Source: Amoebophrya sp. A120
Taxonomy: Eukaryota > Protista > Dinoflagellata
DNA: 64,000 nt
Reading direction: 5' to 3'
Assembly: GCA_905178155.1 (NCBI GenBank)
Contig: CAJINV010000005.1
Location: 545,715 to 609,714, forward strand
Part shown: positions 6,060-63,680 of the stretch, piece after piece
Layout: each line of letters begins with the position of its first letter
Numbering within the stretch: the stretch's first letter is position 1
The notes under the pieces: model-generated
Told to the model about the DNA's origin: nothing
The model's database searches: none
Seen by the model: the letters and a program-made list of their open reading frames with translations, nothing else
Position numbers and translations under genes: made by a program

Positions 6060-7740
6060 TGCGTGGCAGCTTGCCAAAGTCAACGGCTGGCAAGCTGTAG
6101 CGCACAAATGAGGCTGAGGGGCCAAGGAAGTGCGAAGCTGTTGAAGTGGCTTTCTCAACTCTCAGTAGCTTTATTCTCCTTCGTTTCTGCGTTACAAATG
6201 CAGAAATGAAGGACAAAAGAAACGCGAAGAGCTTTCTCCTGTCCTTCGTTTCTGCGTTACAAATTGCCATCATGATTGGCAAGCTGTAGCGCAGAAATGA
6301 AGGGCAAACTATTGAAGTGGCTACTCCAACTGTCCTCCATCGGAAGAAAGTTGAAAAAGTAGCCACTTCGATAACAACTGCATGACAAATTGCCACAGTA
6401 GTGGCAGTTGTTGAAATTGAACAACAACGCAAACGCGTTCAAATTATAGCCACTGCAGCAAGAATTATCTGTGTTGTTGTTCAGTTTGCAACTTGTCACG
6501 CAGCTTTTGATGAAGTGGCCACTTCAACTCTCCACCAGAGTGTCGTGAGCAGCTGCGCGACACGTTGCAAACTGAAGCTGGACAACGACGCCAATTGTTG
6601 AAGTGGCTATGTCAACAATTTGCGTCGTGTGCGAGCAAAAATTGTGAAAGTGGCCACTTCAGCAGTTCGGGTTCTGCGAATTGTTGAAGTGGCCACTTCA
6701 GCAATTCGGGTTGTGCAAAATGTTGAAATGGCCACTTCAACAAAACCCGAATTGCTGAAGTGGCCACTTCAACACTTTGCACAATTATTTCAACAATTTG
6801 CACAACGCAAATTGTTGAAATAGCCATTTCAACAATTTGCACAACCCAAATTGTTGAAGTGGCCACTTCAACAATTTGGGTTGTGCAAAGTGTTGAAATG
6901 GCCATTTCAACAATTCGGGTTCTGCGAATTGTTGAAATGGCCACTTCAACAATTCGGGTTCTGCGAATTGTTGAAGTGGCCAGTTCAACAATTCGGGTTG
7001 TGCAAAATGTTGAAATGGCCACTTCAACAATTCGGGTTCTGCGAATTGTTGAAGTGGCCACTTCAACAATTCGGGTTGTGCAAAATGTTGAAATGGCCAT
7101 TTCAACAATTCGGGTTCTGCGAATTGTTGAAATGGCCACTTCAACAGTTCGGGTTGTGCAAAGTGTTGAAATGGCCATTTCAACAATTCGGGTTCTGCGA
7201 ATTGTTGAAATAATTCGGGTCGTGCAAAATGTTGAAATGGCCATTTCAACAATTGCAATTTAGGGTTTTGTTGAAATGGCCATTTCAACACTTTGCACAG
7301 CCCGAATTTTTGAAATCATGGCCACTTCAACAATTCGCAGAACCCGAATTGTTGAAGTGGCCACTTTCGCAATTTTTGTTCAATTTCAATAAATTGTCAC
7401 TATTGTGGCAATTTGTCATGCGCTTGCTATTCAAATGGCTACCTCAACTCTCCGCGAAGTTGAAGTAGCCACTTCAACACAAGCTGCGTGACACGTTGCA
7501 AACCCAAGCCGAACAACAACAAGAACGCAAATTGTTGAAGTGACTACTTCAAAAATTTGCACAGCGCAAGTTTTTGAAGTGGCAACTTCAACAGTTTGCC
7601 TGTGCGAATTGAAGTAGCCACCTCCATAACAACTGCGTGACAAGTTGTAAACTGAACAACAACGCAAACTGTTGAAGTGGCTACTTCAGCAATTTACTGC
7701 GTCGCTGTTCAATTTCGTCACGCAGTTGTTATTGGTATGG
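6060..7740. repeat. Complex repeat with a 39-bp tandem array built on the 28-bp palindrome AATTGTTGAAGTGGCCACTTCAACAATT
   Basis: About 10 regular units at 6851-7250 with alternating spacers CGGGTTCTGCG and CGGGTTGTGCA. Inverted arms at about 6635-6755 and 7256-7380, with degenerate copies outside. Confidence 0.92.
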
Positions 7741-30306: not shown

Positions 30307-33300
30307 TCAAGATGTTTGAAGCGAATACAGCTCTCCTGTCTGGTCACCAATACAAATGCGATTGCGACAAACTGTTCCTTGACCACCGATACCGTCCGCG
30401 GACCCGAACGGCCCGCTGCCGGGGAAATACCCGACTATTCTGAACTCATTTTTTTGATCGCCTCCTTCAGCATCAGAAACTGATAAACTACAAACGTAAA
30501 CGAATTTCGACGAGAGCGCAACGGCGAATAGATACTCTTCGTGGCCTTCGTTTGGTTGTACAGCAGGTCCGCAGAAGCTGTCAAAATCGCACGCCTCACA
30601 CCAGGCGATCGTCGGTTTGTTCGCGCTGCCCGGAAACAGCGCTGAAGTTTGCGCAATCGTCGCGATTTTTGCCTTGTCTGCTCCACCAGCCTCACCCGAA
30701 GAAGTGTCGACTCTGAACGCCACTAGCTCCCCTTCTTGGGAGCCGCAGATCAAGTACGAATGATGCTGCGGTTTGTCTCGGTCAGCGACAAGAGCGTCTT
30801 CGGTCTGCTTCGGGTTCTGTTGCGGTCCTGACAAAAAACAAGCACTCACCACCCAGGACGCGTCTGCGGTCGAAACGGTGAACAGCAAATCCGCCGTTGA
30901 GCCGAGCCACACGCGGCACTGGTTGTCGTTCGAGCCGGCAGCGACGAGGAAATCAGGTTGATTTGTTCCAGAGCCCCCTCTTTCAATTGCCGCCCCCGCA
31001 ACACACAACACCGCGGTCCTTTGCGACACTTTCGGCGGTAACTGTGCCTTTTTCCAGGGCAACACGCTATCCGCCGGTAACCGCTTTTTCTTTTCCAGAA
31101 GAATGTCGGTTAGTAGTTCCTTGCTCGGACAAGCCCACGCCACCGCGTAGCTGTCGCCGCCAGCTAGAATCGCTTGGGACGAAGTTGTAGGTGGCACCTC
31201 CATTCTGGAACCATTGTTTACCGACGTGGAAAGGGCGTTGATCCAATCAGGAAAACTGCAAGATAGCACACAGACCCCGTCACTCGCACGCAACACGTGT
31301 ACGATGCGAAACATGGCACAGAAAAGAGCCGTGTTGGCGAGTGATTTCAGCCCACCACCGCTGCTTGATGATGTGGGATGTGCATCCGAATTGGATGCAG
31401 TTGGCGACGGCAGCACCGCTAGTGAGCTCACCGCTGTCATGTTCAGTTCGTTCGCTGATTTCAAAACCTTCGTCCAAACCACCGTCTGACAATACGGGTT
31501 GTCCCACAAACGCACTCTGCCCATGATGTCCGCTGAAGCGACGTGCGATTCGCTGAGAAATGCGCAGCTCGAGACTGCGTGCGGCTTGTGGTAGGATTCG
31601 GCTGGAAGCTTGCTTTGCGGTGGTGCTGCGTCAGGTGGACTTGTCGACGAAGATGAAGCTTTCGTAGTTCCAACTCTCGGTCCAGCAGCCGCACCGGGTC
31701 CCGCGAGTGCGGGGAGATTACCGAGCTTGGCTCGCTTGTCTTTGTCTGCCGATGCGGTGTTGGAGTTGGTGTCTTCTGCACCTCCGGAACTAGTACCAAC
31801 AGCCGCCCTCTTCACAGCAGGCTGCTGATGATTTTCCCTCGCTGTGTCTAACCGGTAAACGCGCACGACACCGTCGTCGGAGCAGGAAAAACATCTGTTG
31901 CGCATCACCTGGGCTGTCTTAACCGTGCTCGCGTTCCCTTCTAAAGTGGCGCAGTGCTTCACTTTCGCGGTTCCAGAAGAAGAGCCTGGTGCTTCGGCAT
32001 TTGTGGTGGCCGCAGTAGATGCTTGCTTGCTGCCAGTAGATTTCTTTCCTTTGCCCGAACCCTTGCCAGCGCTTGTTGTACCGGTAGTTTGTCCAGATTT
32101 AGTGCTCTTTCCCTCATCGATTGAAATGTCGTAGAGACGGAGGGTTTTGTCATCTGCACAAGTGATGACGGAGTAAGTGGAGGTGGACGTCGACAATCCT
32201 TCGCCGTGCTGAAAAACGGTGAGCGACATCATATCGATGCCAGAGCCGTGCAGATTCGGAACCGTTGCAAGGACACTGAAGGAAAATCCAGTACTGGAGC
32301 TCGAGCCTTGTATGTCTCCTGCTTTACTGTCAATCTTGAACAACGCCCACACTTTCAAACTGTAGTCGCTGCTGATGCTCACACAGTACGTTTTTCCGAG
32401 GAAGCGAAAATCTACCACATTGTCCGTGTGCGACTTGAGGATCAAGCACGGGTCAGAAATTGCTTGCTCCACAACTTCCGCATCTTCTCCAGCGTAGTTT
32501 CTAGTTGCCGGTATGCACCACATTCTGATCTCTGCCTTAACCCCAGTCGCAACGAAAAGTCGGCTTCTATCCTCGCTAAAAAAGCCGTCGCAGCCAAGCC
32601 CTCCACGGCCGAGCTGCCAATGTGCAAGTTCGCGGGTAAAGCGAGCGGGTTTCTCTCCACCTTCTTCATTCACTTTTTGGTTCGCCAAATCGTTAACTTC
32701 GTACGCTGCAAAAAACTCGCCCGTCCGCATCAAAACAGTGAACATACCACTTTCCTGTGTCTGCACCGGCACTTTCTGCAGAGAAAAGCAACCCCCTCGC
32801 GCTTCCCAGGAGAAAAGCTTGTTCCCCCGCCTTATATCCCACAAAATCACGTCGTTGTCCGGCTTGTACGGTTTGCAAGTTGCGACGGAGAGGAGCAAGT
32901 TCTCTGTCAAAAACAGACAGTGCGACAACTCCCCGGTGTGCCCGTTTGTAATTCCGAGGGTGATCACCTCCTCCCAGGATTCCGTGGACAAAACGTGCAC
33001 AAAAGCGTCGCTGCACCCGAGGGCGATGTGCTTGTAGTCCGGGGAAACCGCCGCGGTCCATATCCAACTGTTGTTGCCGGAGAGCTGGACCGTCGTTTCC
33101 AAAGCAGTTTTCCGCTGGTCCTTGTTCGTCCAGGATAAGGGGATTTGGGTGGGAGGTGAATCTGTGTTGGTTTTTTTGCCTCGTGAGTCCTTATCCTGCG
33201 ACGCTACGTCGGAAGAATCTCGAACGTTCAGGGCTTGTTGGCGCAATACGTGTTCCAGCATGGATTTCGAATCTCCGTCGTCGGCAGATGCGGCAGCACT

Positions 33301-34944
33301 CGAAGCAAACAACCGAAAAACATGTGCATTCCCAGAATAGAACTCCTGCCAGTCCTCGAGAACAGAGGGAGAGCACGCTCCTGGTAGAGATCCAGCCGCC
33401 CCAAGCAGCACTTTCTGCAAAAACCTGAATTCCAGCAAAAAGTCGCCTAGCATCCCTGCTGCGCACTTGTGCCCGAGAAAAGCCAAATTGTCCCCACCGA
33501 GGAAGAGCTGCTGCAAAATTGCCGTGTCGGCTGCGCGGAGTGCGTGGTAAGGGAGACGGGTGAGAATTTGTTTCCAAGAAGCTCCTTGTGATGTTGCCGG
33601 CTGGGTGGTTATCTTCACCGCATTGTATTTCTGCAGGAAAAACGTAGCCAATTTCGCGTGTATGGCTTTCAACGCAGTACCGCCCTCAAAAAGTTTGTAG
33701 AACCGCTGCACCGCATCGCGAGCTTGCATGTGTAGGAAACCGACGACAGAATCACCACTGCTCGTTTCTACGACGCGGAGGACGCAAGCCAGTAAAGCTG
33801 TTGTGTCTGTAATCGTTTTTTCCGCAACTTCGCTGAAATTCGCCTGCTGCTGAGTCGTCAGACCACCCTCTGTGGCGAAAACCGCACCTAGAGCGAGTGA
33901 TAGGGGCAGTGTCTCCTTCTCAGACTTTCCCTTCGCTTCTGCATCCAGTTGGACGAGAATCTTATGAAATAATGCGGATATGGTCCCCGGTAAAGAGTCC
34001 TCAGTTCTTCCAAAGTCGCTGTCGAAACTTGATAGTCTCCACACCTGCGCGACGATCCGTAAATACAGAGCCACCCCAGCGTCCTGCTTCTGCACAATCC
34101 GATCAAGCACTTCCGGGCTTGCTGGGGCGTCAGCGGGGAGAAAACTGGAGAAAAGCTTTCGCTTGTCACTGTCGTCGAGACCATCCAACGCAACGTGCTG
34201 TGCTTGCGGCCACCGCTGCGTGATCGTAGCGAGGGTTTGGCGTAATGGGTCATCTTCGTGTAATTCTGCAGTAGGTGAAGTGTTTCCCTCTGGTGCGATA
34301 TCGCTATCGGCTTTATTCGCTGGGACGATAGTGGAAAGTATGTACTTCGCATTTTTGATTTGCAGTGGCAACCAGGTGAGATTCCGCGTCGAATCCTCCA
34401 GTTCGTTCACGGCATCGAAGACAAAAACCACACGGGCCGAACTCGGCTTACCAACGGCAACTGGCGCTGTCAGCAGTGCAACTGCTCGGGTCAGCAGGGT
34501 GGATAACCCACTCAAGTCAGCCTCTTCGGCTTCTTTCTGGATTTCGACACGTTTCTCTTCGATATTTGCAGTGTTTTTACCCGGGCTGCTCGAGTTCGCG
34601 GTGTCCAATACCTTCATAACCAACGCTTTCAAAAAGCGAAACGCCGAGGTCGAGGCGTCGCTGCTTCCGATGAAAACGGAGAAAACGAATGTTGTTGGCG
34701 TTCCAGAATTTTCATCCGTCGGTCCGCGGAGTTTCTTGCACATCTGCGCGAGCATAGTGCTTTTCCCCGCCCCGGACTTAGCCAATAAAAGGGTAGCGGA
34801 AAACTCATCGCGGTGTTTGGCGGTCGAAGCCTCGAGCTGCGTCGCGGCACGGGCTTGCGCGTTGGAGAGGCCAAGACTGAGTGTGGACCCGCTGGCGGCG
34901 GCGGCACGATCGAGGATCGTGCTCTCGTTATTGATTGCTTGCAT
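30307..34944 (-). CDS. NACHT-type P-loop NTPase plus WD40 repeats (TEP1/NWD1-like architecture)
   Basis: 1545-aa ORF with Walker A LLLAKSGAGKST and Walker B VVFVFDAVNEL. WD repeats include GHTGELSHCLF..VILWD and SHTDNVVDFRF..LKVW. C-terminal CIGDQTGELYSL. Confidence 0.9.
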   Translation of the reverse strand: MQAINNESTILDRAAAASGSTLSLGLSNAQARAATQLEASTAKHRDEFSATLLLAKSGAGKSTMLAQMCKKLRGPTDENSGTPTTFVFSVFIGSSDASTSAFRFLKALVMKVLDTANSSSPGKNTANIEEKRVEIQKEAEEADLSGLSTLLTRAVALLTAPVAVGKPSSARVVFVFDAVNELEDSTRNLTWLPLQIKNAKYILSTIVPANKADSDIAPEGNTSPTAELHEDDPLRQTLATITQRWPQAQHVALDGLDDSDKRKLFSSFLPADAPASPEVLDRIVQKQDAGVALYLRIVAQVWRLSSFDSDFGRTEDSLPGTISALFHKILVQLDAEAKGKSEKETLPLSLALGAVFATEGGLTTQQQANFSEVAEKTITDTTALLACVLRVVETSSGDSVVGFLHMQARDAVQRFYKLFEGGTALKAIHAKLATFFLQKYNAVKITTQPATSQGASWKQILTRLPYHALRAADTAILQQLFLGGDNLAFLGHKCAAGMLGDFLLEFRFLQKVLLGAAGSLPGACSPSVLEDWQEFYSGNAHVFRLFASSAAASADDGDSKSMLEHVLRQQALNVRDSSDVASQDKDSRGKKTNTDSPPTQIPLSWTNKDQRKTALETTVQLSGNNSWIWTAAVSPDYKHIALGCSDAFVHVLSTESWEEVITLGITNGHTGELSHCLFLTENLLLSVATCKPYKPDNDVILWDIRRGNKLFSWEARGGCFSLQKVPVQTQESGMFTVLMRTGEFFAAYEVNDLANQKVNEEGGEKPARFTRELAHWQLGRGGLGCDGFFSEDRSRLFVATGVKAEIRMWCIPATRNYAGEDAEVVEQAISDPCLILKSHTDNVVDFRFLGKTYCVSISSDYSLKVWALFKIDSKAGDIQGSSSSTGFSFSVLATVPNLHGSGIDMMSLTVFQHGEGLSTSTSTYSVITCADDKTLRLYDISIDEGKSTKSGQTTGTTSAGKGSGKGKKSTGSKQASTAATTNAEAPGSSSGTAKVKHCATLEGNASTVKTAQVMRNRCFSCSDDGVVRVYRLDTARENHQQPAVKRAAVGTSSGGAEDTNSNTASADKDKRAKLGNLPALAGPGAAAGPRVGTTKASSSSTSPPDAAPPQSKLPAESYHKPHAVSSCAFLSESHVASADIMGRVRLWDNPYCQTVVWTKVLKSANELNMTAVSSLAVLPSPTASNSDAHPTSSSSGGGLKSLANTALFCAMFRIVHVLRASDGVCVLSCSFPDWINALSTSVNNGSRMEVPPTTSSQAILAGGDSYAVAWACPSKELLTDILLEKKKRLPADSVLPWKKAQLPPKVSQRTAVLCVAGAAIERGGSGTNQPDFLVAAGSNDNQCRVWLGSTADLLFTVSTADASWVVSACFLSGPQQNPKQTEDALVADRDKPQHHSYLICGSQEGELVAFRVDTSSGEAGGADKAKIATIAQTSALFPGSANKPTIAWCEACDFDSFCGPAVQPNEGHEEYLFAVALSSKFVYVCSLSVSDAEGGDQKNEFRIVGYFPGSGPFGSADGIGGQGTVCRNRICIGDQTGELYSLQTS

Positions 34945-35557
34945 GAGATGGTTTTAAAAGTGCATCTATATTGATACTGATTTTGAAGATAGGCAAGTGA
35001 AAAAACTAGAGGTGCAAGATCAAGGAGCGTATACGCAAATGGAAAGTAGTAGTACCCAACTGTAAAGGAAAGAAAAAATAATGATCACTAGACTGCTCAC
35101 GACTGGGGTGCACGGCCACGAGTCACAAAAAAGAAGCGGCTCCCTGCGCTGAGGTGAGCTCAAACGACAAGCGACCGCTTTGTCATTCAAACTTATCAGA
35201 GAGTCAACATTTCCATTTGTGAATCGCAATCGAGACGAAAGAAAATAACCCAGGTTGGTTGCAACCGAACAGACAGCGGCAGTGTGCCTTGTCGATCAAA
35301 CTCAAAGTCACAACTCGCTTACACGAAGCAAAAGCAGAGGCAAGCAAATCAACTGCGCTTGTTGAACCGCTCTGCATGTGCGGTTGGCGGTGGAGAATGA
35401 ACTTCACTCCCTCTAGCCGCGAAAGGAATTGCAATCTGGTGTACGCTGGTGTACATCAACTCCAAGTTAGTAGCATCTCGGTAAATAATTGTTGTGCTAT
35501 TCATCTGTAAAAATTGCTGATCGACAATGGAGTCATGTGTTTCGTGCGACCTCTCTC

Positions 35558-45918: not shown

Positions 45919-48884
45919 TCAAGTCTTCGTAAAAATCACCGGGTCGAGCGCTATTTTCGACCGTTCCAATTGCCGTCTCCTCGTTGCTTCTTGCCGCCGA
46001 TACTCCTTCGGCAGCAGGTCAAACGGCAGATTTTGCCACCAGTGCCGGTGGTCGTACAGGTGATTCCGCGTTGGCCGACGGAACCATCCGGGCTTTCCTC
46101 CACCTCCCGAGGATTGACCACCCGCCCTGTTCAGCGACAACAAGGCGCCCTCGGTGAACACACTCGCACGCGTCCGATGGCTCCCACGAAAAGCCGCGCC
46201 CGCATTTGCGTCGGAGTAGTTGTAGCTGCAGCTTGCGGTTGTTCCGTGGGTATTGTATCCACAAGCCCCCGGCGGATAGCTTGATTTCCCACTGAGAATC
46301 GCGTCAATTCGCATTTGCAGCTCCGTCTTCCTGGTGGCCGCTTTGTTCAGGGTATTCGCAGATGAGCCGGAGGTTGTGCACCCCTGTTTGAAAGATGTTC
46401 CGCTGTTCTCGTCCGCAGCTTCTGCCTCTTCCTCCAAACTCGGAAGGGGGTCGAGATATGGATGCCGCCGAATCTCGTCTTATCCAAGAAAAAAACATTG
46501 TAGGTGTATACAATACTTTTTTGGAAGAACAACATTACAAATTTGTCTGGCATGACAGCAAAAACCTGTCATGCGCAGATAGTACGCGAAAACGCCCCTT
46601 AATGGACGCTGCGACGCATGCCAAGCATGACAGACGCAATCATCTTGCATGTGGAGCATCACAAATTTACACTAACAGCGTTTTTTTCTTGGATACGTCT
46701 TCGTCGTCATTCAGAGCATCGGCGGAAGCTGTACCGGGGTCCGTTGTAGCGTTTGTCCCTGGAGGACCCGAAGTTCCTTTCGGACTCGTTCCGGAGGCTG
46801 GCTGCACGGACTGCCGGAAGGATGACCCTCCAGGGCCAACGGAAATGCGTTCGCCCGTCCGCTTCGCTTGCTCGGCCGTGCGCTTGCGGAGAAGGAGTTC
46901 GCGCCTAGAAAATGAAAAAGCATGATGACGCCCTTTTTGCGCTTCAACAATTAGAAGTGTATGAGCATGTTGCGGAAAAACTGTTACACCGGCCGGGAAA
47001 TGGAAAAGATCATTAGTTACAATTCAAATTCTACCTCTCCAACTTCTGCTTCTGTTTCCACTGCTTCTCGAGTTTCGCCAGGATTTTTTGTCGCAGCCGC
47101 CGGTCCGTTTTCGGGGAGTGGTGCAAGTGTCGCAAGCGCACGACTATGGTGCTCTCAACTGTTACATTCTCAGCTGTTACATAAATTTGTGATGCTAAAC
47201 CGACCGAAACCACGCATAAATTTGTGATGCAAGAATGGCAAAACTGAAAGGGGGAAGATTGCGCCTTTTGCATGACAGATTTGGCACAGATTCTCAGCCT
47301 GTTTGGGCCTTCCAGAATTTGTCATGCGCAGCAGCTTGATCGCGTCGAATCTGATTGCAGTTTTGCATGACAAATCGTGTAACAGTTGAGAATGTAACGC
47401 TTGAGAACGCCATAACGACTGAATTCACCGGATCGTACGTGTTCACCAAGTTCAAGTTGCCCGTGGGCAGCAGTTATCAAATGCAAATATGTCTGGGTCT
47501 GGTAACTTGTGATGCTGGGCGGCGTCTCATGATGAGGCCACAAGTGCTGGCTCAGCATGACAAGTTTCTGAGCTTCTATGTGTTGCCTATTCTGCATGAC
47601 AAACTGCGTTTCTGCATCACAGAAAAATGGAGCTTTTGGGTAACGTGCATGACAGATTTAAGAGTCATGCCAGACAAGCATGACAAACATGCATTCTTCC
47701 CGACACAGACATTTTTGCAATTGATAGCAGTCGTGACAGCTTCTCGCGCGGGTCGAACTGGTCCCGCTCGAACTCCAAGTCGCCCAGGATTTCCGCAAGG
47801 GTCTCCCGCCTGGATTCTTGCGTGGTAGTATGCTACTTACTCGTGTGGCTCAAAATCAAACAGCCGTTTTTCAAGAGCATGAAACGTAAGGAGCAATTGT
47901 GCTGTCAACATTGTACTCAGAACTGCCATCACAAGTTGCACTTACTTCTCATCAGAATCTGTGTCCGAGTTGTCGTAGGGGTCCCAAACCTCGTCCTCCA
48001 TGGAGGCGTGTTTTTTCAGTGCGTTCTGACCCAGCGTCGCGCTCACGCCGTCATCCCTCGTTCGCAAGCGTTCCAGGTCCGTCGCGTGGAATGTCGTGCT
48101 GCGACGGTAGTTGGCTACTGTGCAGAGCAATGGAGCATTGAAACAAATCACGCACAGCGACAGATTGGTTCATACCTTCGCAACAGGGAGAGAACATAGA
48201 CATACAAAGGATTATATGTACCAAACAGGATCATGTACCACGCGAGACGTTCGCGGGCGGCGCAGGTGTAGAAGCAGCGGCTCCCTCTCCCTTACCCGAT
48301 GCTGCAGATGCCTCCCCGGATTTCGTTTTTCCAACGCCGATCTGTTTGTTCGTCACCCCCGTGCGCATTTTGAGCTTATCCGCGAAAGCTCGCGCCATGA
48401 CCTGGGCCCGCGGTGACATGGATAATAATGTTGGCTGCTTGGTACAGGCGCTGCTTGGAAGGGAAAACTGCTTTGCAACGCCGACGAGAGCGCGTTCCTC
48501 ATCCTGGTCATGATTCCCACCCTGCAGTGATGCAGAGGCGGTAATTGCGAACTGAGGTTTGCCCACTGGTTGCAGCTGCGACGAAGTTGCAGCCGCGCTG
48601 TACGACCCAGTGAACAGGGTCGGGGAGGTCTGCAAGTGCCCGGTGCTTGTGCAGTTTTTGCCGATGGCGCTGTTGGTGATGGTAGAGCTCGTCAAGCAGG
48701 ATGAGTTGTCCAACCGCCAGGAGGAGGTAAGCCTCCTTGGCCCCGCGGCATCACCAAGCGGCACACTGCTCGTACCCCCGGCTGTCGAGTTCGAGGTCCG
48801 GCGCTGCGACGGCGCCGAGGGCTGGTACCCGGAGATACTGGGGGTGGCATTTGTGAAGCTGAAGGTCGGTAGTTGAGACGACAT
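45919..48884 (-). CDS. Multi-exon hypothetical protein with three TIR elements and conventional introns
   Basis: Joins KLSRL-LPTGN, VVMA-TIVVRL, KLER-RELLLRK (GT-AG) and DDED-EIRRHPY..LEEEAE all stay in frame. Confidence 0.75.
46481..46695. mobile_element. Introner, family F, 215 bp, TSD CGTCT
   Basis: TIR TATCCAAGAAAAAAA. CGTCT at 46476-80 and 46696-700. In-frame join. Confidence 0.93.
47152..47408 (-). mobile_element. TIR element forming a canonical GT-AG intron, family C, 257 bp
   Basis: About 40-bp imperfect TIR (TCTCAA..GTTACATTCTCARCTGTTACA...TTTGTSATGC). Minus-strand ends GTTCTCAAG...TTGAGAG. The frame is supported by the next GT-AG junction. Confidence 0.82.
47475..47726. mobile_element. 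Introner, family B2, 252 bp, TSD GCAGT
   Basis: GCAGT at 47470-74 and 47727-31. Highly similar to 16688-16943. In-frame join. Confidence 0.95.
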
Positions 48885-51764: not shown

Positions 51765-53902
51765 TTATTCGTCCACCATTTTCTGCTCCACCTTCTTCAT
51801 CAAATCGAAGTAGACATTGGACCACTTGTCCAGCGTGGCGTCGAAGTCGGATTTGATCCAGGGATTGAACTGGTGGAAGCACTCCATCTCGTGCTTCCCC
51901 TGCATCTCCTCCTCCTCCTTTTTCAACAGTTGGAATTGCGCCAGCATCTGGTGCTCCGCACTGGTCTTCATCAGATTCGACAAACCATGCTTGTTTTTAC
52001 CGTTGTTCAGCTTGTTGTTCGTGGCTGCGGAAGCTGTAGAAGTGGCAGCCGCAAGCGTAGAAACTGTGCTTTCCTTCATGGTTTGCGCCATCCCTCCCAC
52101 CGCGGAGGTCTGCATCAGCAGCAGCAGATTCTTCTCATCGCGCACACTGTCAAGATTGTTGCTGTTGCTCTCGACATTCTTGAAATTCAAATTCGATGCT
52201 GCAGTTCCGTTGTTAACCTTTTTCAAATTCTTCAGTTGCATCCTTGTTCGTAAAAAGCTTGTGATGTCGCCCTGCTGCACGTACTCGTTGCGCAAGTTTT
52301 CGTAGGCCGCGGAAAACCCCGCCTGGGTTTCCTCCGGACGCCCGCCCCAGATCTCGAAGGCAAACGAGTACGGAACGTCCACCTCGTCGTAAGCGTAGTC
52401 CATACCTTAAGTTGGGGATTCGTCATGTTGTGTGAGGAAGATTGGAGGTCATGCTGCAACAATAGCCTACTTCAGGCAGACTCACTCGTCTCATAAATCT
52501 GACGAAAAATGATCTAAATATTTTTCTTGGCGGAAAAGGAAAACAAAAACAATTCTGTACTGTTGCCCGTCGCCTGATAGTGAATTGTTTCCATCGCGGA
52601 TCCGTAGGGGATTTTCACTTGCTTGTTGATGGAGTCCAGCACCGACAGCATGTTTTTGTAGTTCTCCGGCTTCTGCGTGCTCCACCCGTACGGCAGAAAC
52701 ATGCTCATCGTGCCACTGTGCACCGTCACAAACAAATCGGGTTGGAAGTCCTTCAGCAGCTTCACGACGAGCCTGGTGGGAAATTTTATATATTTTGCAT
52801 AGAGTTGAAAAATGCATTTCGATTCCGTGCTCTTGCACACTCATGATGGTTTTCGTTGTGTGGAGAAGGAGATCCAGGTCGACATGTTGCTCATACCATA
52901 TGCATATTCTCGTTATGGATTTGCATGCTCGAGAACGTCACACAAAAAATCAGCATGATCAACAATCTACTTCGGCTCCTTTTCCGACAATGCCTTCGGC
53001 CCCGACCAGGTTTCCGTTCCGTTTGCCCCAGTGGCCTGCCAGTGGTCCGGGTAATTCCGGTTCAAGTCGACCCCTGAGGTGGCCGTCCGCAAACAGTACT
53101 CGTGGTTGTTCAGAACTCGGTCGCGGGCCTGCGGGTTCGCGTTCACGACCGCCATCACCTCCCAGATCTTGTTGATGTCCTTTTGCAGAAACTGGGTCAG
53201 GAAGTGCAGTCCGCTTTCCGGCGAAATCAGCTCCCGCGCGTGCTCGCCAAAGATGAAGAACGCTTTCAGCGGGGCCGTGTCGTCTTTCGTGTTTTTTCCG
53301 TGGTCCAGGTTTTTATGCTTGTGGTTCTCCGCAGCGGCATGGATCTTGGTTTCGGCTTTGGTTTTCGTTTTTTCCTCCTTCCGCATCATCACCGTCGGGT
53401 GCTGCTGTTGTTCCTTTCCGCTTTCACCCACTTCCGCCTCGGAAACGGATGCCGTTGGCGACGTTGCTGAGGACGAATGATCCTTCTTGTACACGTGCAC
53501 CACATCGATGCCCGTGCCCTGGTTCCGGTCCACGTCGACCGTCAGGTCTGCGTTCTGCGCCGCGGTCTTCAGGTTCTCCAACTCCTTGCTCAACGCCGCC
53601 GAGTTGTGGTAGAACACCAATGCGTCCTCAACGTCATCTTGTTCCTCGCCAAATTCGTCATTTTTGTCCTCGACGACCTGCGTGCTGCCGTCGTTTCTGG
53701 TAGTAATAGTCTTCCCCGAGGCGGTGCTTGTCCTCGCGGTACTGAATTCATCTTGGCCAACATCTGCTGTTCCAGATGCTGCAGATGTCACACCGTGAGC
53801 AACATCCTTTTCCTTTCGCAAGCGAAAGCCGCTCGTCCCGGAGAGCGCGTTCGCGATGACGACGATGCCTGCTGCCAAATAGCAGGCTTGGAATCTCTTC
53901 AT
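51765..53902 (-). CDS. Secreted M14 zinc carboxypeptidase
   Basis: Signal peptide, GEHARE zinc motif, NANP, GVDLNRNY, GPKALSE, VTVHSG and catalytic AFEIWG. Three exons. Confidence 0.92.
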
Positions 53903-54867
53903 CCGGCCGGACGCTGTGAACAAGAGATGACGGGGCCGGAGTTTAGCTTTATAAAATGTTCGAAGTATTGTCGTACGTGTTAAAAATTGATCTGTATTCT
54001 CGAGAAAGGCACTCAGTACCTAGTCCTAGGAATGTTGACTGAGTGTGGGTTGACAAAAATTCACCACGGTTGTACGAAGCTCACCGAAGCAGTAGGAAAA
54101 ATAACAGGCCGCGACGTGCTTACTTTTTTCTCTCGACGTTGCGAGAAACTAACCCTCACGGTTTGGCTCTTTGCAAATGTGAATGTCGTGGTCTCTCATC
54201 GACGCCTGCAGCTTTTTGCTCGAAGACAAAGATAGTCGAAATCTACTGTGCTGTCATGAGGAACGGACTTCTGTTTTTTTGCAGCCGAGATTACGCTCGT
54301 TTTGGAAAGCCAAACAAAACTCTTGACGCAACGTGATTGGCTGCGCGGAAATGGTCAGAATTGATACCACGTGGCATCACGACGCGATATTGATGCTGTT
54401 ACTTCCGCTTGAGATTCTTGCACTTACTAAATGGCGCCAACACAATGTTCACGCTTGCCTACGAGTCGACATCGAAGCAGCCTTTCGCGTTTATGAAACG
54501 CGATGAATATGTTTGTTGAGCACCGCAATTGCTCATGAAAGTCCTGTAGCGTGCTCGTTTTACGTGCTGCGCGGGAAAAATCTACATTTCACGACAAATC
54601 AGTGCATGAGGCCCGAAACGGCCTAAGCATCTCGTGATGCTCATAGACATTGACTGAGAACTCGCCGCGAGCGTACCAGAGTGACACGGTTGCAAGCGGC
54701 TCGTCGTCTGCGTGGCCCTGTAGACAACGAACTGGTGCTGCCGCCACAAAGAACTGGACTAATCTACTGCTTTGGTTACACATGATGACCTACAACTTCA
54801 CGGCCACACTATACAAAGTCGGTCGCATTTTTCTTTCTTCTGTGCTACATACTGAGAATTCGATCGA

Positions 54868-56547
54868 TTACAATTTACTTTCCAACACGATCTTTGCCCC
54901 GCCATACTCTCCCCGCCTCTTCAGCCCGTCCATTTCCCTCTGTCCTTGCCGCAATTCGTTCAGCATTGCCGGGGATTGCGCTTCTTTCAGCGTCAATATC
55001 TCCAGCTCCTGATCTTCCGCCGTACCCAGGTGTTTCCAGCTCTTGTGCAGCTCTTCCAATCTCTCGACGTACAACGCATGTAACCTTTTCACCTCTGCGC
55101 GGAACACTTCGCTATCTGTTTCTCCCTTCACCATCTTCACCGGAATCTCGATCGGCGCGCCGAAGACCGTGTGCAAGGGCGTTTTTGCCGGAATCGTCGG
55201 AAAAAGCAAACTACCGACCGTGTTGTTGAAATTGTGAAAAACGGGGAGAGAAAACTGCATGTTTTTCTGCATCAGGAGTTGAAATTTCCGCAAAAGCGGG
55301 TTGAAAACCTGCCGATACAAAGCCGTTTCCCCGAAAACTAAAACCGGAACCAGCGGCGTCCCGGTGCGTAAAGCCACCTCGACGAAGCCCATCCTGTCTT
55401 TCAAAACGATCCGCATCTTCCCGCCGCCCGAGAGCAGCGCCTCGTCTGCCCCACCCACATACAGCCCAACGGATTTTTTCGCTTCTAGGTTCCTCACCAC
55501 CTTCTCCTTTTGCGCCGTAGTCAATCCGGCCAGCATGCTCCATTCGGCGGCCCCGGGCAGGTGGAAAGCCGCGTCGACCGTGCAACAATAAACCTTACCC
55601 AAATTCGGGTTTTTCTTGTGCAGCAGCTTTGTTTCCAGCCCCGTCCCCTCCGCAAACGTCGGCGCCATGGAAAGCGCGAGGACCCCATGCGGATGGACCG
55701 CGAAGAGGAAGTTTTCGTGGTTCGCTTTTTCCAACGGGTAGGTAAACACGTTTCGGTGCGGGTAGTAGGCGGAAATGAGCTTGAAAATGTAGCTGTCCCG
55801 CAAACCAGGGTCGCCCCGGATTCTCCCCGAGTGCTTCCAGGGGTTAAAATAGGCGAGGACTTCGTACAGTAGGAACCCGAAGGCGAACTTCTTTCGGTTG
55901 TACCCGATGGTGCGCTGGAAGAGCTGCTTCAAAAAGTAGAGTAAAACGGCGGAGTTGATGCCTGTCTGCGTGCAGACCCAGAAGAGCACCGCGGCCTGGG
56001 GAAGCGGGAGAATTTTTTGCAAAATGAGACCGAGTTTGGTTGAAAACTCCGGTTTCGAAACGGCGTGCGGTTCAGGTGGGTGTACAAGGGTGATATGTTT
56101 ATTTTCCAGTGCGGCTGAGGAGGAGGTCTTCTGGTTCCACAACACTTTCGCTTCTTGTTCGTCGTCTTTCTCCTTCTCACTGCTTTCTTGCGCTGGAGTT
56201 ATTTTCGCTGGTAACAGCCCCGGCGTCGTCCGCGGCGTTCTGGTTCTTCGCGTTGGATAATACTGGTGCCCATTAAGTCGAGATGGAGACTCGTGCTGGT
56301 CCTGAAATTGAAGTTTCGCGGAATCATTACATTCACTCTGGTCGAAGTATTTCATGTTTGAGTTTGACGTCAACTCGAGTTTGGCCAAACTCATAAAATC
56401 GTTCGTAACATTGGGCCGAGCGAGGCTAAGAAAAAATGCCGAAGTGACTTTGAATTTAGAAAACGTACGACGATGTCGCAACGGCACGACAGTACAAAAA
56501 TCGACAAAGATATCCGTACCAGGTACAGACGGAACCACACGAGGCAC
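54868..56547 (-). CDS. DGAT2: Diacylglycerol/monoacylglycerol acyltransferase (DGAT2/MOGAT family); start uncertain
   Basis: YYP, HPHG, YVGGADEA and RMGFVEVALRTGTPLVPVLVFGE motifs. Confidence 0.9.
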   Translation of the reverse strand: MPRVVPSVPGTDIFVDFCTVVPLRHRRTFSKFKVTSAFFLSLARPNVTNDFMSLAKLELTSNSNMKYFDQSECNDSAKLQFQDQHESPSRLNGHQYYPTRRTRTPRTTPGLLPAKITPAQESSEKEKDDEQEAKVLWNQKTSSSAALENKHITLVHPPEPHAVSKPEFSTKLGLILQKILPLPQAAVLFWVCTQTGINSAVLLYFLKQLFQRTIGYNRKKFAFGFLLYEVLAYFNPWKHSGRIRGDPGLRDSYIFKLISAYYPHRNVFTYPLEKANHENFLFAVHPHGVLALSMAPTFAEGTGLETKLLHKKNPNLGKVYCCTVDAAFHLPGAAEWSMLAGLTTAQKEKVVRNLEAKKSVGLYVGGADEALLSGGGKMRIVLKDRMGFVEVALRTGTPLVPVLVFGETALYRQVFNPLLRKFQLLMQKNMQFSLPVFHNFNNTVGSLLFPTIPAKTPLHTVFGAPIEIPVKMVKGETDSEVFRAEVKRLHALYVERLEELHKSWKHLGTAEDQELEILTLKEAQSPAMLNELRQGQREMDGLKRRGEYGGAKIVLESKL

Positions 56548-56657
56548 TTTGAAAACGAATCAACGACGACCAAAAACTGACGAACGGGAACGCGGCTAAC
56601 AGATAAAGAAGGAAATGATCAACGCCAACAAGAAAGAAAAATCTAAATCGTTCACAT

Positions 56658-57600: not shown

Positions 57601-58403
57601 GGAGCAATTCAGGAAAAACGACAGCAACTAACATCGATACTCATGTCGACATGACGACCCGGAAGATTATCTTCCGGGCCAACAAATGAAAGTGAAACAG
57701 CTCCAGCTGGTCCCGCGGCTGTGTTGTCGGTTCTTGTAATGATTATAAAAAATCAGCTTTTATTAGCGATGTCTCCGAATTGTACAGAAAATGTGCTTGC
57801 AACATTCGTCGAATGCCAAAAAACGCTTGTTCAGCCAGAACTTTTTTCCCATTTTTGAAACTACAAAATGATAAGGCGTTTTCACGAAAATCTCAGATCT
57901 TTGCTTTGTCTTCTGACCTCTCAAGGTGCTTCGATAGTCGGCCCTGCAGCTGATCACAACCGTAGAGACTTCTATCATGAGATGAAGATGCTAGAAAATA
58001 ATGCGGCCAATGGTGCCTCATTTTGTTTTCCACTGTTGCTCCCCGAAAAAGTCAAAAATTGAAACTACTCCGTATGGATAGTTTTTCTTCCTTATTCTCG
58101 CTCCGCGGGCGGAATCGGCGAAACTGGAAAAATCCACGATACCAAATTCTGTGTTTGTAAAAAATCGTAAAACACCCTAACGTTCTACTCACTGATTCGA
58201 AACAAGTAGTGTAGGCAGCCGCGACTAGGACTGCTGTCGTGCCGAATAATTCTACATTTGAAAAAGAAGCAGGTCGCTGGAACTCTTACATTCAACAAAA
58301 TCTTACATTTACTTCGCTTCTTGCACCCCTAAAAAAGTAGTATATTTTTGTCCACGTCGTGGTCTAACACTGGTACTTATCATCTGTTTCTACCACAGCA
58401 CCA

Positions 58404-60613
58404 CTAGTCCGTCGTAGTCTGTTCGACCCTCTCCTCCGTTTGCGCCGCTTGTCGTTCCTGCAGCAGCGCGACGATGAAGGCCGTATCTGCTGTCCGGATG
58501 CGCACGGATTGGTCTTGCAGCGTTGCGACAAAGTGCGGCGACAGGTCAAAGCCGATGTAGCAGTCACGGTCGGGATGCGTGAAGTTCGCTGCAGTGCCGG
58601 CCTCCCGCAGAATGGTCGTAAAAACGCAGACCTTCGTCGCCAGCGGGGTGACTTTTTCCGCAATTTTGCAAAACCGCTCCTGGTCGCCGCGAAACAGAAA
58701 CTGCGCGTCGAGCCGGTCCAACCGCGCGCTCAGGCTTGCCCGCTGCCGCTCCACGGCTGCGAGGACACGGCTTTCGAACCGCCGGACAATCAGCGGGAGA
58801 AGGCAGTTTTTGACCAAGAGTTCCGCCAACTCGCACGGACAGGTCGTGCTGGCTGCGTTGTACTTGGAAGAAGTACTAGTAGAGGTATTTTCATCTCGAC
58901 GCTGGTGGAGTGATGCGAGAAGCGCTTGGTACAGATCGTTCCCCGTGATGGAAAGGCTTTCATCATTGGAGTTGTTACGGAGGTCGTGGCTCTGTCCTGG
59001 ACTCGAGTATGCGTCGCCGCGCAGCAAGACCACTAAACCAACTGTAAAATTCTCTATGAAAACGAAATCTCTTGTCACAGTCACATCCGAGACGTTTTGT
59101 AAGGCGTTTTGCCTTACAAAACGTCTCTGATGTGACTGTGACAAGAGATTTCGTTTTCATATTCTCCACCAAGTCGAGGATGTGAAGCAGAAAACGCCGC
59201 CACAACACCTCGGCTTCCACCTGGCACCGCTCACCGGAGAGAACGTGCCGCGGCTCCTCGTGGCCGAGGGCGTCGCCGTCCGTTCGGGGGAGCGGGAGGG
59301 GGGCGATGTCGACCAAGAAACGGAAACCAGCCATCTCTGCAGTTATTTCCTGCTCCGCGTCGTCTCTATAGTTTGCCTGCTTCAGATACGTGCCGACAGA
59401 AACCGGCGCCTTTTCGCGCTGCTCGTCGTCCAACTTTCGTGGGAACGCATGCATCAGCCGGTGCGCCATCAAATCGCCGGCGGCGTTGCAAAAACCTGGG
59501 ATACCAAGCACAGTTTGTTAACCGTACAAGAGTTCGTAGGATCATTCATAGTAGACCAAAAAGATACACTGTCACAGAAAATGGCCACACAATAACCGTA
59601 AACGAATCCATAGGAAACAGATAAAATAAGTAATAGATACTGTGCACTGCTTCAACAGTCGGAGCTGCCAGGCGTTGATTGGAAGTGGACATGTTCATCG
59701 GAAGCAGGTCTTGCTTCGTGCAAAAGTCTCGTAAGGCGCCCGCGAGACGCAAACCGTTGTGAAAGCTGAAGTTGTGCCTCCAAAAGTGCACTTCTGCAAG
59801 CTTGTCGCCGTACACAGGTCGCTTCGCCCTGTCCGAAAGGTTTACGACAAGCCTGCCGACGACGTCGTCCTCGTTGGCAACAACGACCAGGGCCGGACGT
59901 GCCCGAAAGCGGGGATCGCCCGGTTGTTGAAACAGCCCGAAAGGGAAGCCCTGTGCCGATACCATGCTATGCTCGGACTCGTTCAGCAGCAGGGAGGCCT
60001 TGACCAGAAACCCGGCGACCGCGCGGGACGTCGTCGTACCGGGTGTTTTCCTCTCCCGGTCGTGCATCGCCTGCTGGGGAATCCGGATGGCAGTCACCGG
60101 CTGCGTATGTTGTACTGTGTTCATATGGTTTCGGTTTTGATGTTGCACACCAGGCTGCTGCGTAACTTCGTCCTGGAAGAAGTCGTTTCTCCCACAGTCC
60201 AATTTCCCCTGCAACTCCCACGCGCGCCAGCTCGTCAAGTCCGAGACCCGCGTGCCCACGCCGAGGCAAAACGCCGCATCGTTGCTCAGCTGGGGTGCGG
60301 TACAGCACAGGAGACAAAATTCGCTGACGTGTTGCGCGAGCTGCGCCCGCCCGCGGAGACTCGCAATTTTCAGACTGCGATCCCTCCAGAGAAACAGCGC
60401 GGTCATGCAAAGGTCGCGGAGGAAGCACGCCGGAAGCCGGGTGCGCCGCGCCTGCCGCGCTGGTTTTTGGAGGGGACCCGAGTGAGTCGTGAAGTGGACG
60501 ACACCTGGAGGTGCTGCTTCCGCTAGAGGAGCCCCGGACGTCGAGATTCCACTGCTTTCCTCCGTGCCCTCGAAGCTGCTCTTCGCCGTGGATTCCGTGC
60601 TGGTGCTATTCAT
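58404..60613 (-). CDS. Hypothetical protein with a hairpin introner
   Basis: ORFs 59546-60613, 58975-59511 and 58404-59144. The last two fuse as DLVEN-FTVGL. Confidence 0.72.
59055..59161. mobile_element. Hairpin introner, 107 bp, TSD TTCTC
   Basis: 51-bp arms with one mismatch and a 5-nt loop GTTTT. TTCTC at 59050-54 and 59162-66. Confidence 0.97.
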
Positions 60614-60841
60614 CGAGGGATAGCTGCAGTGTGTTTGTATAGAATCAGTATGTGAAGAAACTGAATCATCTCATCTACGCGCTTTTACAGCGTCTTCAAA
60701 TCTCTTCATGCATTCACATGATGCATGACGTTCATACGGTGGTAGAAGCAACTCAAATGTCGTGGCGGGTACTTTATCAGCAAGAGAAAAACAACATGTG
60801 TGTTCGCCTCTAGGTGGGCGAGCAAGAGAAAAACAAAAATT

Positions 60842-63495
60842 CTACGGATCCTCCACCGCAGCCAAGTTGTCCACCGCACCCAAGTCGTCGGTTATCGCGA
60901 CACCGGTGTGCAACACGAGTGCGAGGCCTTCCATTACGGACCTGGCTTCTGGCGCGTCGAGCATCACGTTGACGCAGTGACGCAAAAGACGCGCGCTCTG
61001 CCCTCGTTGTGCTTCAGGAAAAAATGATGTTGGCAGAGGATTATTTCGGTTTTGCCCTTCGCCTGCACTAGATCCGTTTTCTTCTGGTCGTGAATTTATC
61101 TGCTGCAACCCTGTTTCCCAGTTCCTTTCTGCAATTGGCCACCGGAAATCTGCCGCGTCACCCACCTTCTCCTGCTTTTGGTTTATTGTGTTGTTGCGCG
61201 TGTTAGTTGTTTGCGTTCTTGCGGTGACCGTAGTAATTGCAGGTCCTTTCTTGTCTCCACGAGGCTGTCGTTCCTTGGATATCTTCTGCTTTTCACCTCT
61301 TCCTCTGCTTTGGTAACGATCGGTCATTTCGCTTCCCGCCCGCACTGCCATTTTCGCCGTTTGCAGGGTGCGCGGATCGTGGTAGTTTTCGAAAAAGCCG
61401 AGGTCGTCTTCGATACTTTCCTCGCTGTGGAGAACGTCCTCTTTGTTCTCGTTGTCGTCTTTCGAAATCGGGCGTCGGTGCGATAGATGTGGATGAACAG
61501 AAGCTCTATCTCCAGCATTAATATGTTGATCTTTGCCAAAGCAGTACCCCATCTTCCGGCACAGCAGCTCCCACAAACTACTGGGAACCTCTAACGCGGG
61601 AAGCAAGCCGGGAAACGCGCAGAAGGAGACACTCATGTCTAGTTCGATCGCGGCCAGAATGTAGATCGCTACCGCGTGGGTCTGCAGGCGCTCCATGTTC
61701 TGCCTTTGGCGTTTTTTTATGGCGAGGAGAGACGCGGGGGACCGGTTTGAAAAGTGCGCCTTGGAGCTGCTCCTGCGTCGTTCGCGCTGCTTTCCTTCGC
61801 CGCCCACCGCACCGGCCTCAGCGGGACGAAGATGATCTTCAGCATCAGGACCTTCTTGAGAAGAAGAAGATGAGCAGGAAAAGTCGTGCAATTCATGATC
61901 TAAATCCAGCTCCGTCGCACCCAGCCGGTAGAGAAAGGAGCGAAATTTCAACTTGCCCAGCGGGTCCTCGATGTCGCCCTTGGTATCCTGTGCAAAAGTA
62001 TCGTAGTCGTACTAATTGCAATCGTGCATGACAAACCTGGTTTCTCAGCAAAGTCAGCATTACAAATTCCATTTTTCCTTCTGGAAAAATTTGTAATGCG
62101 ATTTATACTAGTACGATACTTTTGCAGTTCATACTTGGCGACGTTCACCAAATGCGGGTGCAAGGGGAGTTTGATCAGCCGGTAGGTGGTCGTCAGAAAC
62201 TTCTTGCAGTGGTTGAAACCCAAGATCGCCTTGGTCAGCGCGTCTTCGAAATCCGTTTCGACCGCAGCTCGCTGCTCGTACGCGGTCTCCAGACGCGCAG
62301 TGAATATCAGAAGGAAAAATCCCCCCACCCCATACTCAAACGCAGACTTGTGGCCACAAATCAGCTTTGTCATGCTAGAAGGGAAAAGATGCGGACTGTA
62401 GTGCTGGTTGGCGTGGGAAAGCCTTGCACCTTCAGCATGACAGGGGGCAGCTGGAAGTGGGAAACAGCATGACAAATTGCCTGCAAACGAGGCCACAGCT
62501 GCGTCTCTTGGCCTTCTAGCATTACAAGTCGATTTGTGTACTCAAATACAGCATCACAAACTTCTTCGTTTTCGATATGGGGAGGGGGGATTTTTCCTTT
62601 TGATAGTGAAGTCCTGCTCTTCATCCGCTACTTCCGGCGGAAGAAAATCACGGGGCGCGGGGGGAACCTCCCCTGTGGTCGTGTCGCCAGCTTGTTTGTC
62701 GTTGTTCCGTTGAACTTCTACGACTCCAGCGTCCGCAGCAACACCTGACGCCGCATCCTCGCCATCGGTCTCCTCGTCGAGCAGGAGATTTTCATTTTCC
62801 TCTACGAGCGCCCCTGATCGCACAGTTTTCGTAGTCTTCGTCGCGGCCACGTTAAGAAATGAACCCTGCTCCTGTCTTGTCGGCGTCGGCACATGCTGCA
62901 GACTCGCGGACAGACTGCCACTGTGCGACGACGAGGCGCTGTTGGTCGCGGAGGTCAAAATCCCCAAGTGGCTCGAATCGGCAAACGAAGAAAGATCATC
63001 GACAGCGGCTGCTTGCTGCCTGCTCGCGGTCAGGCTGTGCGATGCGGAGGACGAAGAGGAGCTACTTGAGGATGAGGAGCTGCAGCTCGCACTATAAGAG
63101 CAATCGTTCTTGGTCTCCTTGGTTGCGCTCTCTGTTATTTCTGCTGTAGCTGTGGTCTTTCCATTACGAATAAATGTTCCACCACATTGCTTTCGGTTTG
63201 TTTTCGCCCTTTGCTGATTCTGCACAATCTGCTCTAATTCATCTCCGACGGCGCGCAGGAACGTCGCCGTCTGACTCTCCGCGAGAGAAGAGGACACAGA
63301 GCGCAGCTCGGAAGAAGAAAACGTTGCGGCTGCGGGGGTCGAAGACCGCGATCCCGACGAACCTTGGAGGTCGTCCCGGTCGGAGGTTATGGAGTTCTTC
63401 AACACGTTGATCTTCTGACGGTTGCGCTGCGGTGCGGCCGGTGGTTCGCGGTCCAAAGCAGTAGCAGGAACACCAACAGCACCATTGATAGTCAT
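60842..63495 (-). CDS. Hypothetical protein with two introners
   Basis: In-frame joins EQDFT-ARLET and NVAK-GDIEDPLGKLKFR. Confidence 0.8.
61984..62133. mobile_element. Introner, family A, 150 bp, opposite orientation to 25590, TSD CTTGG
   Basis: Ends TATCCTGTGCAAAAGTATCGTA and TACGATACTTTTGCAGTTCATA. CTTGG at 61979-83 and 62134-38. Confidence 0.95.
62305..62605. mobile_element. Introner, family E (D-related), 301 bp, TSD GTGAA
   Basis: TIR TATCARAAGGAAAAATCCCCCC.CCCCATA. GTGAA at 62300-04 and 62606-10. In-frame join. Confidence 0.95.
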
Positions 63496-63521: not shown

Positions 63522-63680
63522 GAATAGTTCAATTTCGTGAATAGTTCAAATTGAATAGTTCAATTTCGTGAATAGTTCAAATTGAATAGTTCAATTTGGT
63601 GAATAGTTCAAATTGAATAGTTCAATTTCGCGAATAGTTCAAATTGAATAGTTCAATTTCATGAATAATTCAAATTTAAT
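63522..63680. repeat. 31-bp tandem repeat (GAATAGTTCAATTTCGT + GAATAGTTCAAATT), about 5 copies
   Basis: Directly visible 17+14 dimeric unit that decays rightwards. Confidence 0.92.

Follow-up and report, generated by a model that had tools for sequence, protein, structure and literature searches.

The palindromic TAT...ATA introner located at 59055-59161 of the window (the whole 64-kb stretch of DNA analysed) is best interpreted, with a probability of about 0.8, as a non-autonomous inverted-repeat DNA transposon, i.e. a fold-back MITE, of the TAT...ATA class of Amoebophrya A120, which would have landed in a coding exon, duplicating 5 bp there, and would be cut from the pre-mRNA together with one copy of that duplication.

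The element, to which no strand was assigned, is 107 bp long. Its left arm (51 nt, 59055-59105, plus strand) consists of a TAT-N7-AAA terminus, a spacer and, at the inner end, a 9-nt box; it is followed by a 5-nt loop (59106-59110, no strand) and by a right arm of 51 nt (59111-59161, minus strand), which is an inverted copy of the left one with a single mismatch (59088 against 59128). On each side stands a 5-bp direct repeat TTCTC (59050-59054 and 59162-59166, plus strand), a putative target-site duplication (TSD). This anatomy, TAT/ATA ends included, was exactly that given in the preliminary description. Folded with its flanks, the element reaches a predicted -89.5 kcal/mol (z = -19.7), a value equalled by none of 200 shuffles, with -85.6 kcal/mol for the predicted 51-bp stem; pairing stops at the ends of the element and does not draw the flanks into the stem. 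None of the other TAT...ATA elements of the window folds as strongly for its length (-0.80 vs. -0.31 to -0.46 kcal/mol per nt). With 107 nt against 145-314 nt, it is also the smallest of the 14, and 93% of it is paired vs. 58-77% of the others. As for the features of MITEs and non-autonomous TIR elements, terminal inverted repeats, a TSD of constant length, the absence of coding capacity and the existence of several copies were all found.

The host gene lies on the minus strand. Its coding span (58404-63495, compared with contigs up to 63000) starts at a first Met at 63495 and corresponds to about 1383 aa after splicing. The exon upstream of the element covers 59161-59495 and the last exon 57726-59048, the latter with 216 codons down to the stop at 58404-58406, followed by the 3' UTR. 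The gene also contains two canonical GT-AG introns, at 59496-59640, used as a control for spliced RNA, and at 60624-60845, as well as two other TAT...ATA introners without assigned strand: one of 150 bp at 61984-62133 (repeat CTTGG; skip of 155 nt, one repeat included) and one of 301 bp at 62305-62605 (repeat GTGAA; skip of 306 nt, one repeat included). Close to the second canonical intron, a segment at 60758-60931 has a depth of 348 vs. 42 in the DNA-type run, and a short repeat occurs there twice.

Removal of the element plus one repeat (112 nt) joins minus-strand frames of 117 and 216 codons. The spliced host frame then amounts to 1394 codons vs. 1241 if the element is retained, retention bringing a stop at 58975-58977 and the loss of about 216 codons. 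Taken alone, this frame argument is weak, since removal of the 107 bp without a repeat also opens a frame, of 318 codons, on the plus strand; the question was settled by the RNA-type contigs, which skip exactly 112 nt, and the in-frame repair claimed previously thus holds for the minus strand when 112 nt are removed. The frame of the last exon (214 codons in the test) stayed open in 10 of 20,000 shuffles; such an open last exon implies an insertion into coding sequence, from which removal in vivo does not follow. Concerning the host protein, Pfam gave nothing above cut-off, no homologues of two exon-sized pieces were found among longer proteins, and the last exon had 0 matches against 1.84 billion representatives. 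As these searches gave the host protein no homologue, the need for its last exon finds no backing there, which counts against the main explanation.

The RNA evidence consists of assembled cDNA contigs from one study, in two samples (X1 and X4), the RNA type of the runs being a guess. In these contigs the stretch skipped (minus strand, 112 nt, i.e. the element and one repeat) is 59049-59160, which can slide by up to 6 nt, to 59055-59166; the joint 59048-59161 has a depth of 92.3 in X1 and 23.5 in X4, and is absent from the DNA-type run X6. The preliminary description had named retention in mRNA as the observation that would speak against it: no X1 or X4 contig carries the window's own letters inside the element, bearing in mind that assembled contigs lose rare forms and that a strong hairpin itself biases against the retained form. 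One X4 contig omits the two GT-AG introns and also the two further introners, each of the latter with exactly one repeat; given the two missing GT-AG introns, this contig represents spliced RNA. As for the other RNA runs, X5 provided one 151-nt contig inside the last exon and nothing at the junction, and no reads of the raw-read runs X9 and X10 were placed on the window. With X1, X4 and X6, the comparison thus covered six of 11 runs.

A skip in cDNA across a hairpin with direct repeats may also arise from the reverse transcriptase itself, as in the CD19 'falsitron' (PMC8240250), seen in cDNA and not in direct RNA. The likeness is real: hairpin, short direct repeats and a skip in cDNA are common to both, and the 107-bp element has the strongest hairpin per base of the window. 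This origin is nevertheless improbable here, for the two other introners of the host gene, whose ends are much weaker (the outer 7 nt of the one at 61984 are predicted unpaired), are skipped with equal precision in the X4 contig, a sister copy of the element was read through in cDNA, and no retained contig with the window's own letters appeared at depths of 92 and 23.5. The shares described for falsitrons are moreover mostly partial (about 25-30% for a stabilised CD19 reporter, up to 70% of the reads in cell lines and above 90% in some tumour samples; PMC8240250). They are also artefacts within genuine exons, whereas here the class is genome-wide and retention truncates the frame at 58975-58977; because of this truncation, and because nearly all frames of the other TAT...ATA elements of the window contain stops, the introner class must be removed in vivo.

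A skip during transcription would require no RNA cutting at all: the palindrome would extrude as a DNA hairpin and the RNA polymerase would realign over the 5-bp repeat. On paper, this would account for the loss of exactly one repeat, the missing splice dinucleotides and the independence from orientation, but imperfect ends do not make the skip any less exact, and introner-holding contigs in the RNA-type runs suggest that such elements are transcribed. We know of no precedent for a polymerase skipping an extruded palindrome, and consider this route very improbable.

At the DNA level, run X6 was typed as DNA since canonical introns are present in its contigs, and it may be the window's own source sample. 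Its contigs run from the unique flanks into both arms (up to 59084 on one side and from 59132 on the other), and a 66-nt contig (59093-59158), whose depth of 40 is like that of the flanks (42.5-42.7), is free of differences across the loop and the mismatched right arm. The preliminary description had raised the possibility of an assembly fold-back artefact. In the runs compared, no single contig reaches from flank through element to flank, and this, together with the possible identity of X6 with the source sample, is what can be said in favour of an artefact; the presence of the hairpin in X6 at flank-like depth, the one base by which the arms differ, the 5-bp flanking repeat and the existence of sister copies leave it a practically negligible probability.

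Sister copies, whose number the earlier description had left to a count, indeed exist in the DNA-type run. Nine of the 15 X6 contigs compared are less than 95% alike, and the five of them that were listed show 5-13 differences over 70-104 nt, at least three having long unique flanks; they represent sister copies from some four or five loci elsewhere. No listed difference in the stem is accompanied by a listed change of its partner, so that, judged from the differences listed, which are only part of them, the sister copies look less perfectly paired than the copy at 59055-59161. Within the 64-kb window, no further copy was found, and blastn detected no match between the element and the other 13 TAT...ATA elements. 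The sister copy read through in cDNA is diverged in its right arm and seems to have TGCAG as its repeat; it appears unremoved in a 428-nt X1 contig of depth 15.1 (X1 record 2, X6 record 7), a point against the main explanation. Its A>G and T>C differences were considered as possible RNA editing, a reading that was rejected since the same differences occur in the DNA-type run and thus denote a different copy. A metagenome scan with one 17-nt terminus (35 of 64 parts) provided 118 loci, none of which aligned over at least 35 nt (longest, 28); these are chance matches.

Elements of the same type are frequent in the window. Between 16319 and 62605 there are 14 TAT...ATA elements of 107-314 nt, all flanked by perfect 5-bp repeats; 13 of them, including 59055-59161, have TAT-N7-AAA at both ends. 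A strict scan (10 or more of the 12 end bases matching, plus a 5-bp repeat) recovered 10 elements vs. 0 in each of 10 shuffles, while a loose scan (7 of 12 end bases) gave a count that does not discriminate (14 observed vs. 3-9 in shuffles). Removal of the element plus 5 nt produces minus-strand frames of at least 150 codons at 12 of the 14 elements. At 47145-47414 and 47475-47726, removal yields no long minus-strand frame, and the tips of the former are atypical (no AAA). Related longer elements occur in both orientations, and the inverted one at 61984 is skipped too. In four elements (24179, 25590, 42568 and 61984), the two tips differ in their 7-nt spacer, as if the ends of different families had been mixed. 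The summed depth of 61984-62133 and 62305-62605 exceeds 200,000 vs. 42 for the flanks in the DNA-type run, pointing to large genome-wide families.

The splice dinucleotides are not the rule for the removal of TAT...ATA introners. In the seven possible registers of the 112-nt skip there is neither GT-AG nor GC-AG; none starts with GT or GC and two end with AG, so that the skip lacks the donor (GT/GC) and acceptor (AG) pair of a U2 intron in all seven. The introner at 62305 has no register starting with GT or ending with AG, and GT-AG is absent from the registers of all three introners confirmed by RNA. As the joint slides by 6 nt, the sequence does not tell where the cuts really fall; elements with mismatched repeats would fix them, and no convincing case was found in the window.

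These ends bear on the catalyst of the removal step. A U1-less spliceosome, as proposed for Amoebophrya in PMC7789003, would rank first, before a separate cut-and-ligate enzyme, and its chances may be put at about even. In the second scheme, an endonuclease would cut at the foot of the stem, the exons would be joined by a ligase, and the hairpin would come free, linear or circular, independently of the spliceosome. The 100 paired positions predicted out of 107, the lack of GT-AG registers, the failure to find U1 in either A25 or A120 (PMC7789003) and the euglenid introns with paired ends, which leave as circles and not as lariats (PMC11282704), are consistent with it, and a modelled stem of 51 bp would be hard to reconcile with a spliceosome needing a branch site. 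On the other hand, nearly all spliceosomal proteins and U2, U4, U5 and U6 are present in A120 (PMC7789003), and the 3' arm contains a branch-like CUUAC about 45 nt from its end, though buried in the stem. The earlier claim that the hairpin leaves no single-stranded space agrees with the 7 unpaired positions predicted out of 107, but a special pathway is not forced by it: Symbiodinium has palindromic introners of 100-110 bp with GT/GC/GA-AG ends (PMC12130899), so a palindrome need not exclude the spliceosome. By analogy with the euglenid case, the cut-and-ligate scheme is possible, if rather unlikely. Among the titles and abstract beginnings of the Amoebophrya literature, no mechanistic study of removal was present.

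The likeness to the nonconventional introns of euglenids goes further (PMC11282704, PMC12501133), as these have paired ends that join the exons, no polypyrimidine tract, repeat-like borders and cuts at fixed distances from a paired motif, and artificial introns of 50 bp are spliced in Euglena. They differ in their CAG/CTG motifs, in a code that was tested genetically and in belonging to an unrelated lineage, whereas the TAT-N7-AAA case is built from sequence and contigs.

The box at the inner end of each arm belongs to a motif, TTGTVATGC, shared by most elements of the window. It has 34 exact matches in the 3095 bases of the elements (13 of 14 elements) vs. 7 in the 60,905 bases outside, an enrichment of about 95-fold, which has to be read with the fact that the box was first spotted by eye in the same elements where it was later counted and that nine of the 14 belong to two related groups. 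An inward-pointing box lies at +30 to +50 in 17 of the 28 ends (shuffle mean 0.2, maximum 2, in 1000 shuffles), and an outward-pointing one in 9 of 28, the outward orientation being that of the 145-150 bp family. The element at 59055-59161 carries the box only with one mismatch, as TTGTAAGGC (59097-59105, plus strand; mirrored at 59111-59119, minus strand), against a background of one-mismatch boxes of 0.9 per kb outside elements. Here the box occupies +43 to +51 of each end and the arm ends exactly where the box ends, which gives the element the appearance of two ends with nothing but a loop between them. Three sister contigs vary at the degenerate position of the box (59101).

Judging from its sequence and arrangement, we infer that the box is a putative DNA-binding site of a transposase, a reading that would fit better than a branch site because the box is multiple and occurs in both orientations. 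A branch point was considered as well: the distance to the 3' end would be 41-52 nt in eight of the 14 elements and 71-116 nt in the other six, and this candidate was ranked below DNA binding, given the several copies per element, their two orientations and the outward direction in the 145-150 bp family. The passages, sections and supplement parts of the introner papers, as well as the titles and abstract beginnings in the Amoebophrya literature, contain no mention of the box. If genome-wide, it would indicate where the missing mobilising protein binds.

Elsewhere in the window, a 94-nt TAT...ATA stretch at 955-1048 has TAT-N7-AAA at both ends and one box, with no direct repeat and weak pairing, and could be a decayed element or a chance occurrence. 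Between two minus-strand frames, the segment 22050-22260 has two exact boxes and one TAT-N7-AAA end (22259) with no partner end; an introner end may have combined here with a canonical acceptor.

The element is of an already published kind, its class and its size both being catalogued. According to Farhat et al. 2021 (PMC7789003), the introners of A120 are non-canonical introns bordered by direct repeats of 3-5 nt, their inverted repeats starting with TAT + 7 nt + at least 3 A. Like them, the element is a repeated, non-canonical hairpin with TAT + 7 nt + AAA termini and a direct repeat in the 3-5 nt range, removed in RNA-seq; all the features defining A120 introners, namely the termini, the TTCTC repeat, the RNA junction (in cDNA contigs), the sister copies and the A120 genome, were found at 59055-59161. 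It departs from that description by its inverted repeat, which at 51 nt makes up the whole element, vs. 8-20 nt in PMC7789003, where non-canonical introns average 240 nt.

Supplementary dataset sd07 of PMC12130899 (Gozashti et al. 2025) lists 58 introner families for A120, three of them labelled palindromic: fam14 (palindromic TIR-DNA, 301 copies, 106 bp, terminal repeat of 103), fam56 (palindromic TIR-DNA, 38 copies, 105-108 bp, terminal repeat of 102-106, TSD of 5) and fam15 (96 copies, 160 bp), the number after the family name being taken as the copy count. The annotated ends of fam14 and fam56 are mostly non-canonical. By table description alone, the element resembles fam56 and fam14 in length (105-108 bp) and near-full palindromy, whereas only 9 non-self contigs were obtained at 80% likeness or more, fewer than either copy count suggests. 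In A25, palindromic families measure 96-100 bp (24 of the 30 palindromic rows). The main text of PMC12130899 contains none of the terms 'palindrom', 'subterminal', 'branch' and 'hairpin'. The earlier label of a minimal introner is therefore apt as regards an introner that is the shortest and most paired of the 14 TAT...ATA elements of the window, but finds no support as regards novelty or a minimal substrate, families of 105-108 bp (A120) and 96-100 bp (A25) being already published. A length of 107 bp may be near the lower limit for A120, where none of the 58 rows of sd07, several of them without a length, is below 105 bp.

Another A120 family, the Ginger-like introner fam38 (PMC12130899), is similar by description alone in its 5-bp TSD and TA/TA termini; it differs in being about 810 bp long, with open frames similar to Copia/Gypsy. 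It is a lead for the mobilising enzyme of the TAT...ATA class; no transposase is reported for A120 in PMC7789003, a point against the main explanation. The small-RNA precursor suggested in the preliminary description finds no support here: against Rfam, the element gave 11 microRNA-type hairpin matches, all below the gathering score (the best, MIR4387, with 67.8 vs. 84 bits), and the titles and abstract beginnings returned for Amoebophrya with Dicer and Argonaute held nothing on the question.

The origin and removal that we favour, i.e. a fold-back MITE cut from the pre-mRNA, would proceed as follows. The insertion would have hit a coding exon and duplicated the 5-bp TTCTC. Spread would depend on a transposase acting in trans and binding the two ends, each made of a TAT-N7-AAA tip and a TTGTVATGC-like box. 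In the transcript, the two ends would pair and bring the exons together, replacing the GT/AG signals, and the cuts would be made at set distances from the stem base, together 5 nt, so that the outcome would be independent of the sequence of the repeat and of the orientation.

A more far-reaching version holds that the palindromes of 105-108 bp are the smallest possible A120 elements, i.e. two ends of tip and box with a 5-nt loop between them, the box lying about 45 nt from the tip, and that, nothing in them being single-stranded, they would be excised by a spliceosome-independent enzyme reading only the terminal stem and measuring a 5-nt offset. We regard this version as speculative and unlikely in its entirety. 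If true, it would mean that an alveolate has a second mRNA splicing system, guided by structure, which deals with tens of thousands of introns and possibly feeds 50-bp duplexes into small-RNA pathways. The wider question, to which the element gives no answer, is how A120 removes tens of thousands of introns without splice dinucleotides and apparently without U1. For work on that question it is a convenient substrate: its skip is confirmed in cDNA, its interior has nothing single-stranded, and the same gene offers both canonical introns and weaker introners as controls.

As for the rest of the window, 23 of the 26 frames analysed had no Pfam match. The three minus-strand frames with matches are located at 30307-34953 (NACHT/NPHP3_N and WD40), 52967-54019 (zinc carboxypeptidase M14) and 54868-56559 (diacylglycerol acyltransferase). 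Over 74% of its length, the last one shares 100% identity with P0001, whose source identifier has the prefix GSA120T, used for Amoebophrya A120 genes in the supplement of PMC7789003; the next named matches of this frame are Amoebophrya A25 proteins (47% and 41%). Finally, short and partly palindromic repeat arrays are found at 6630-7600, with a period of about 39 nt, and at 63528-63648, with a period of about 31 nt.
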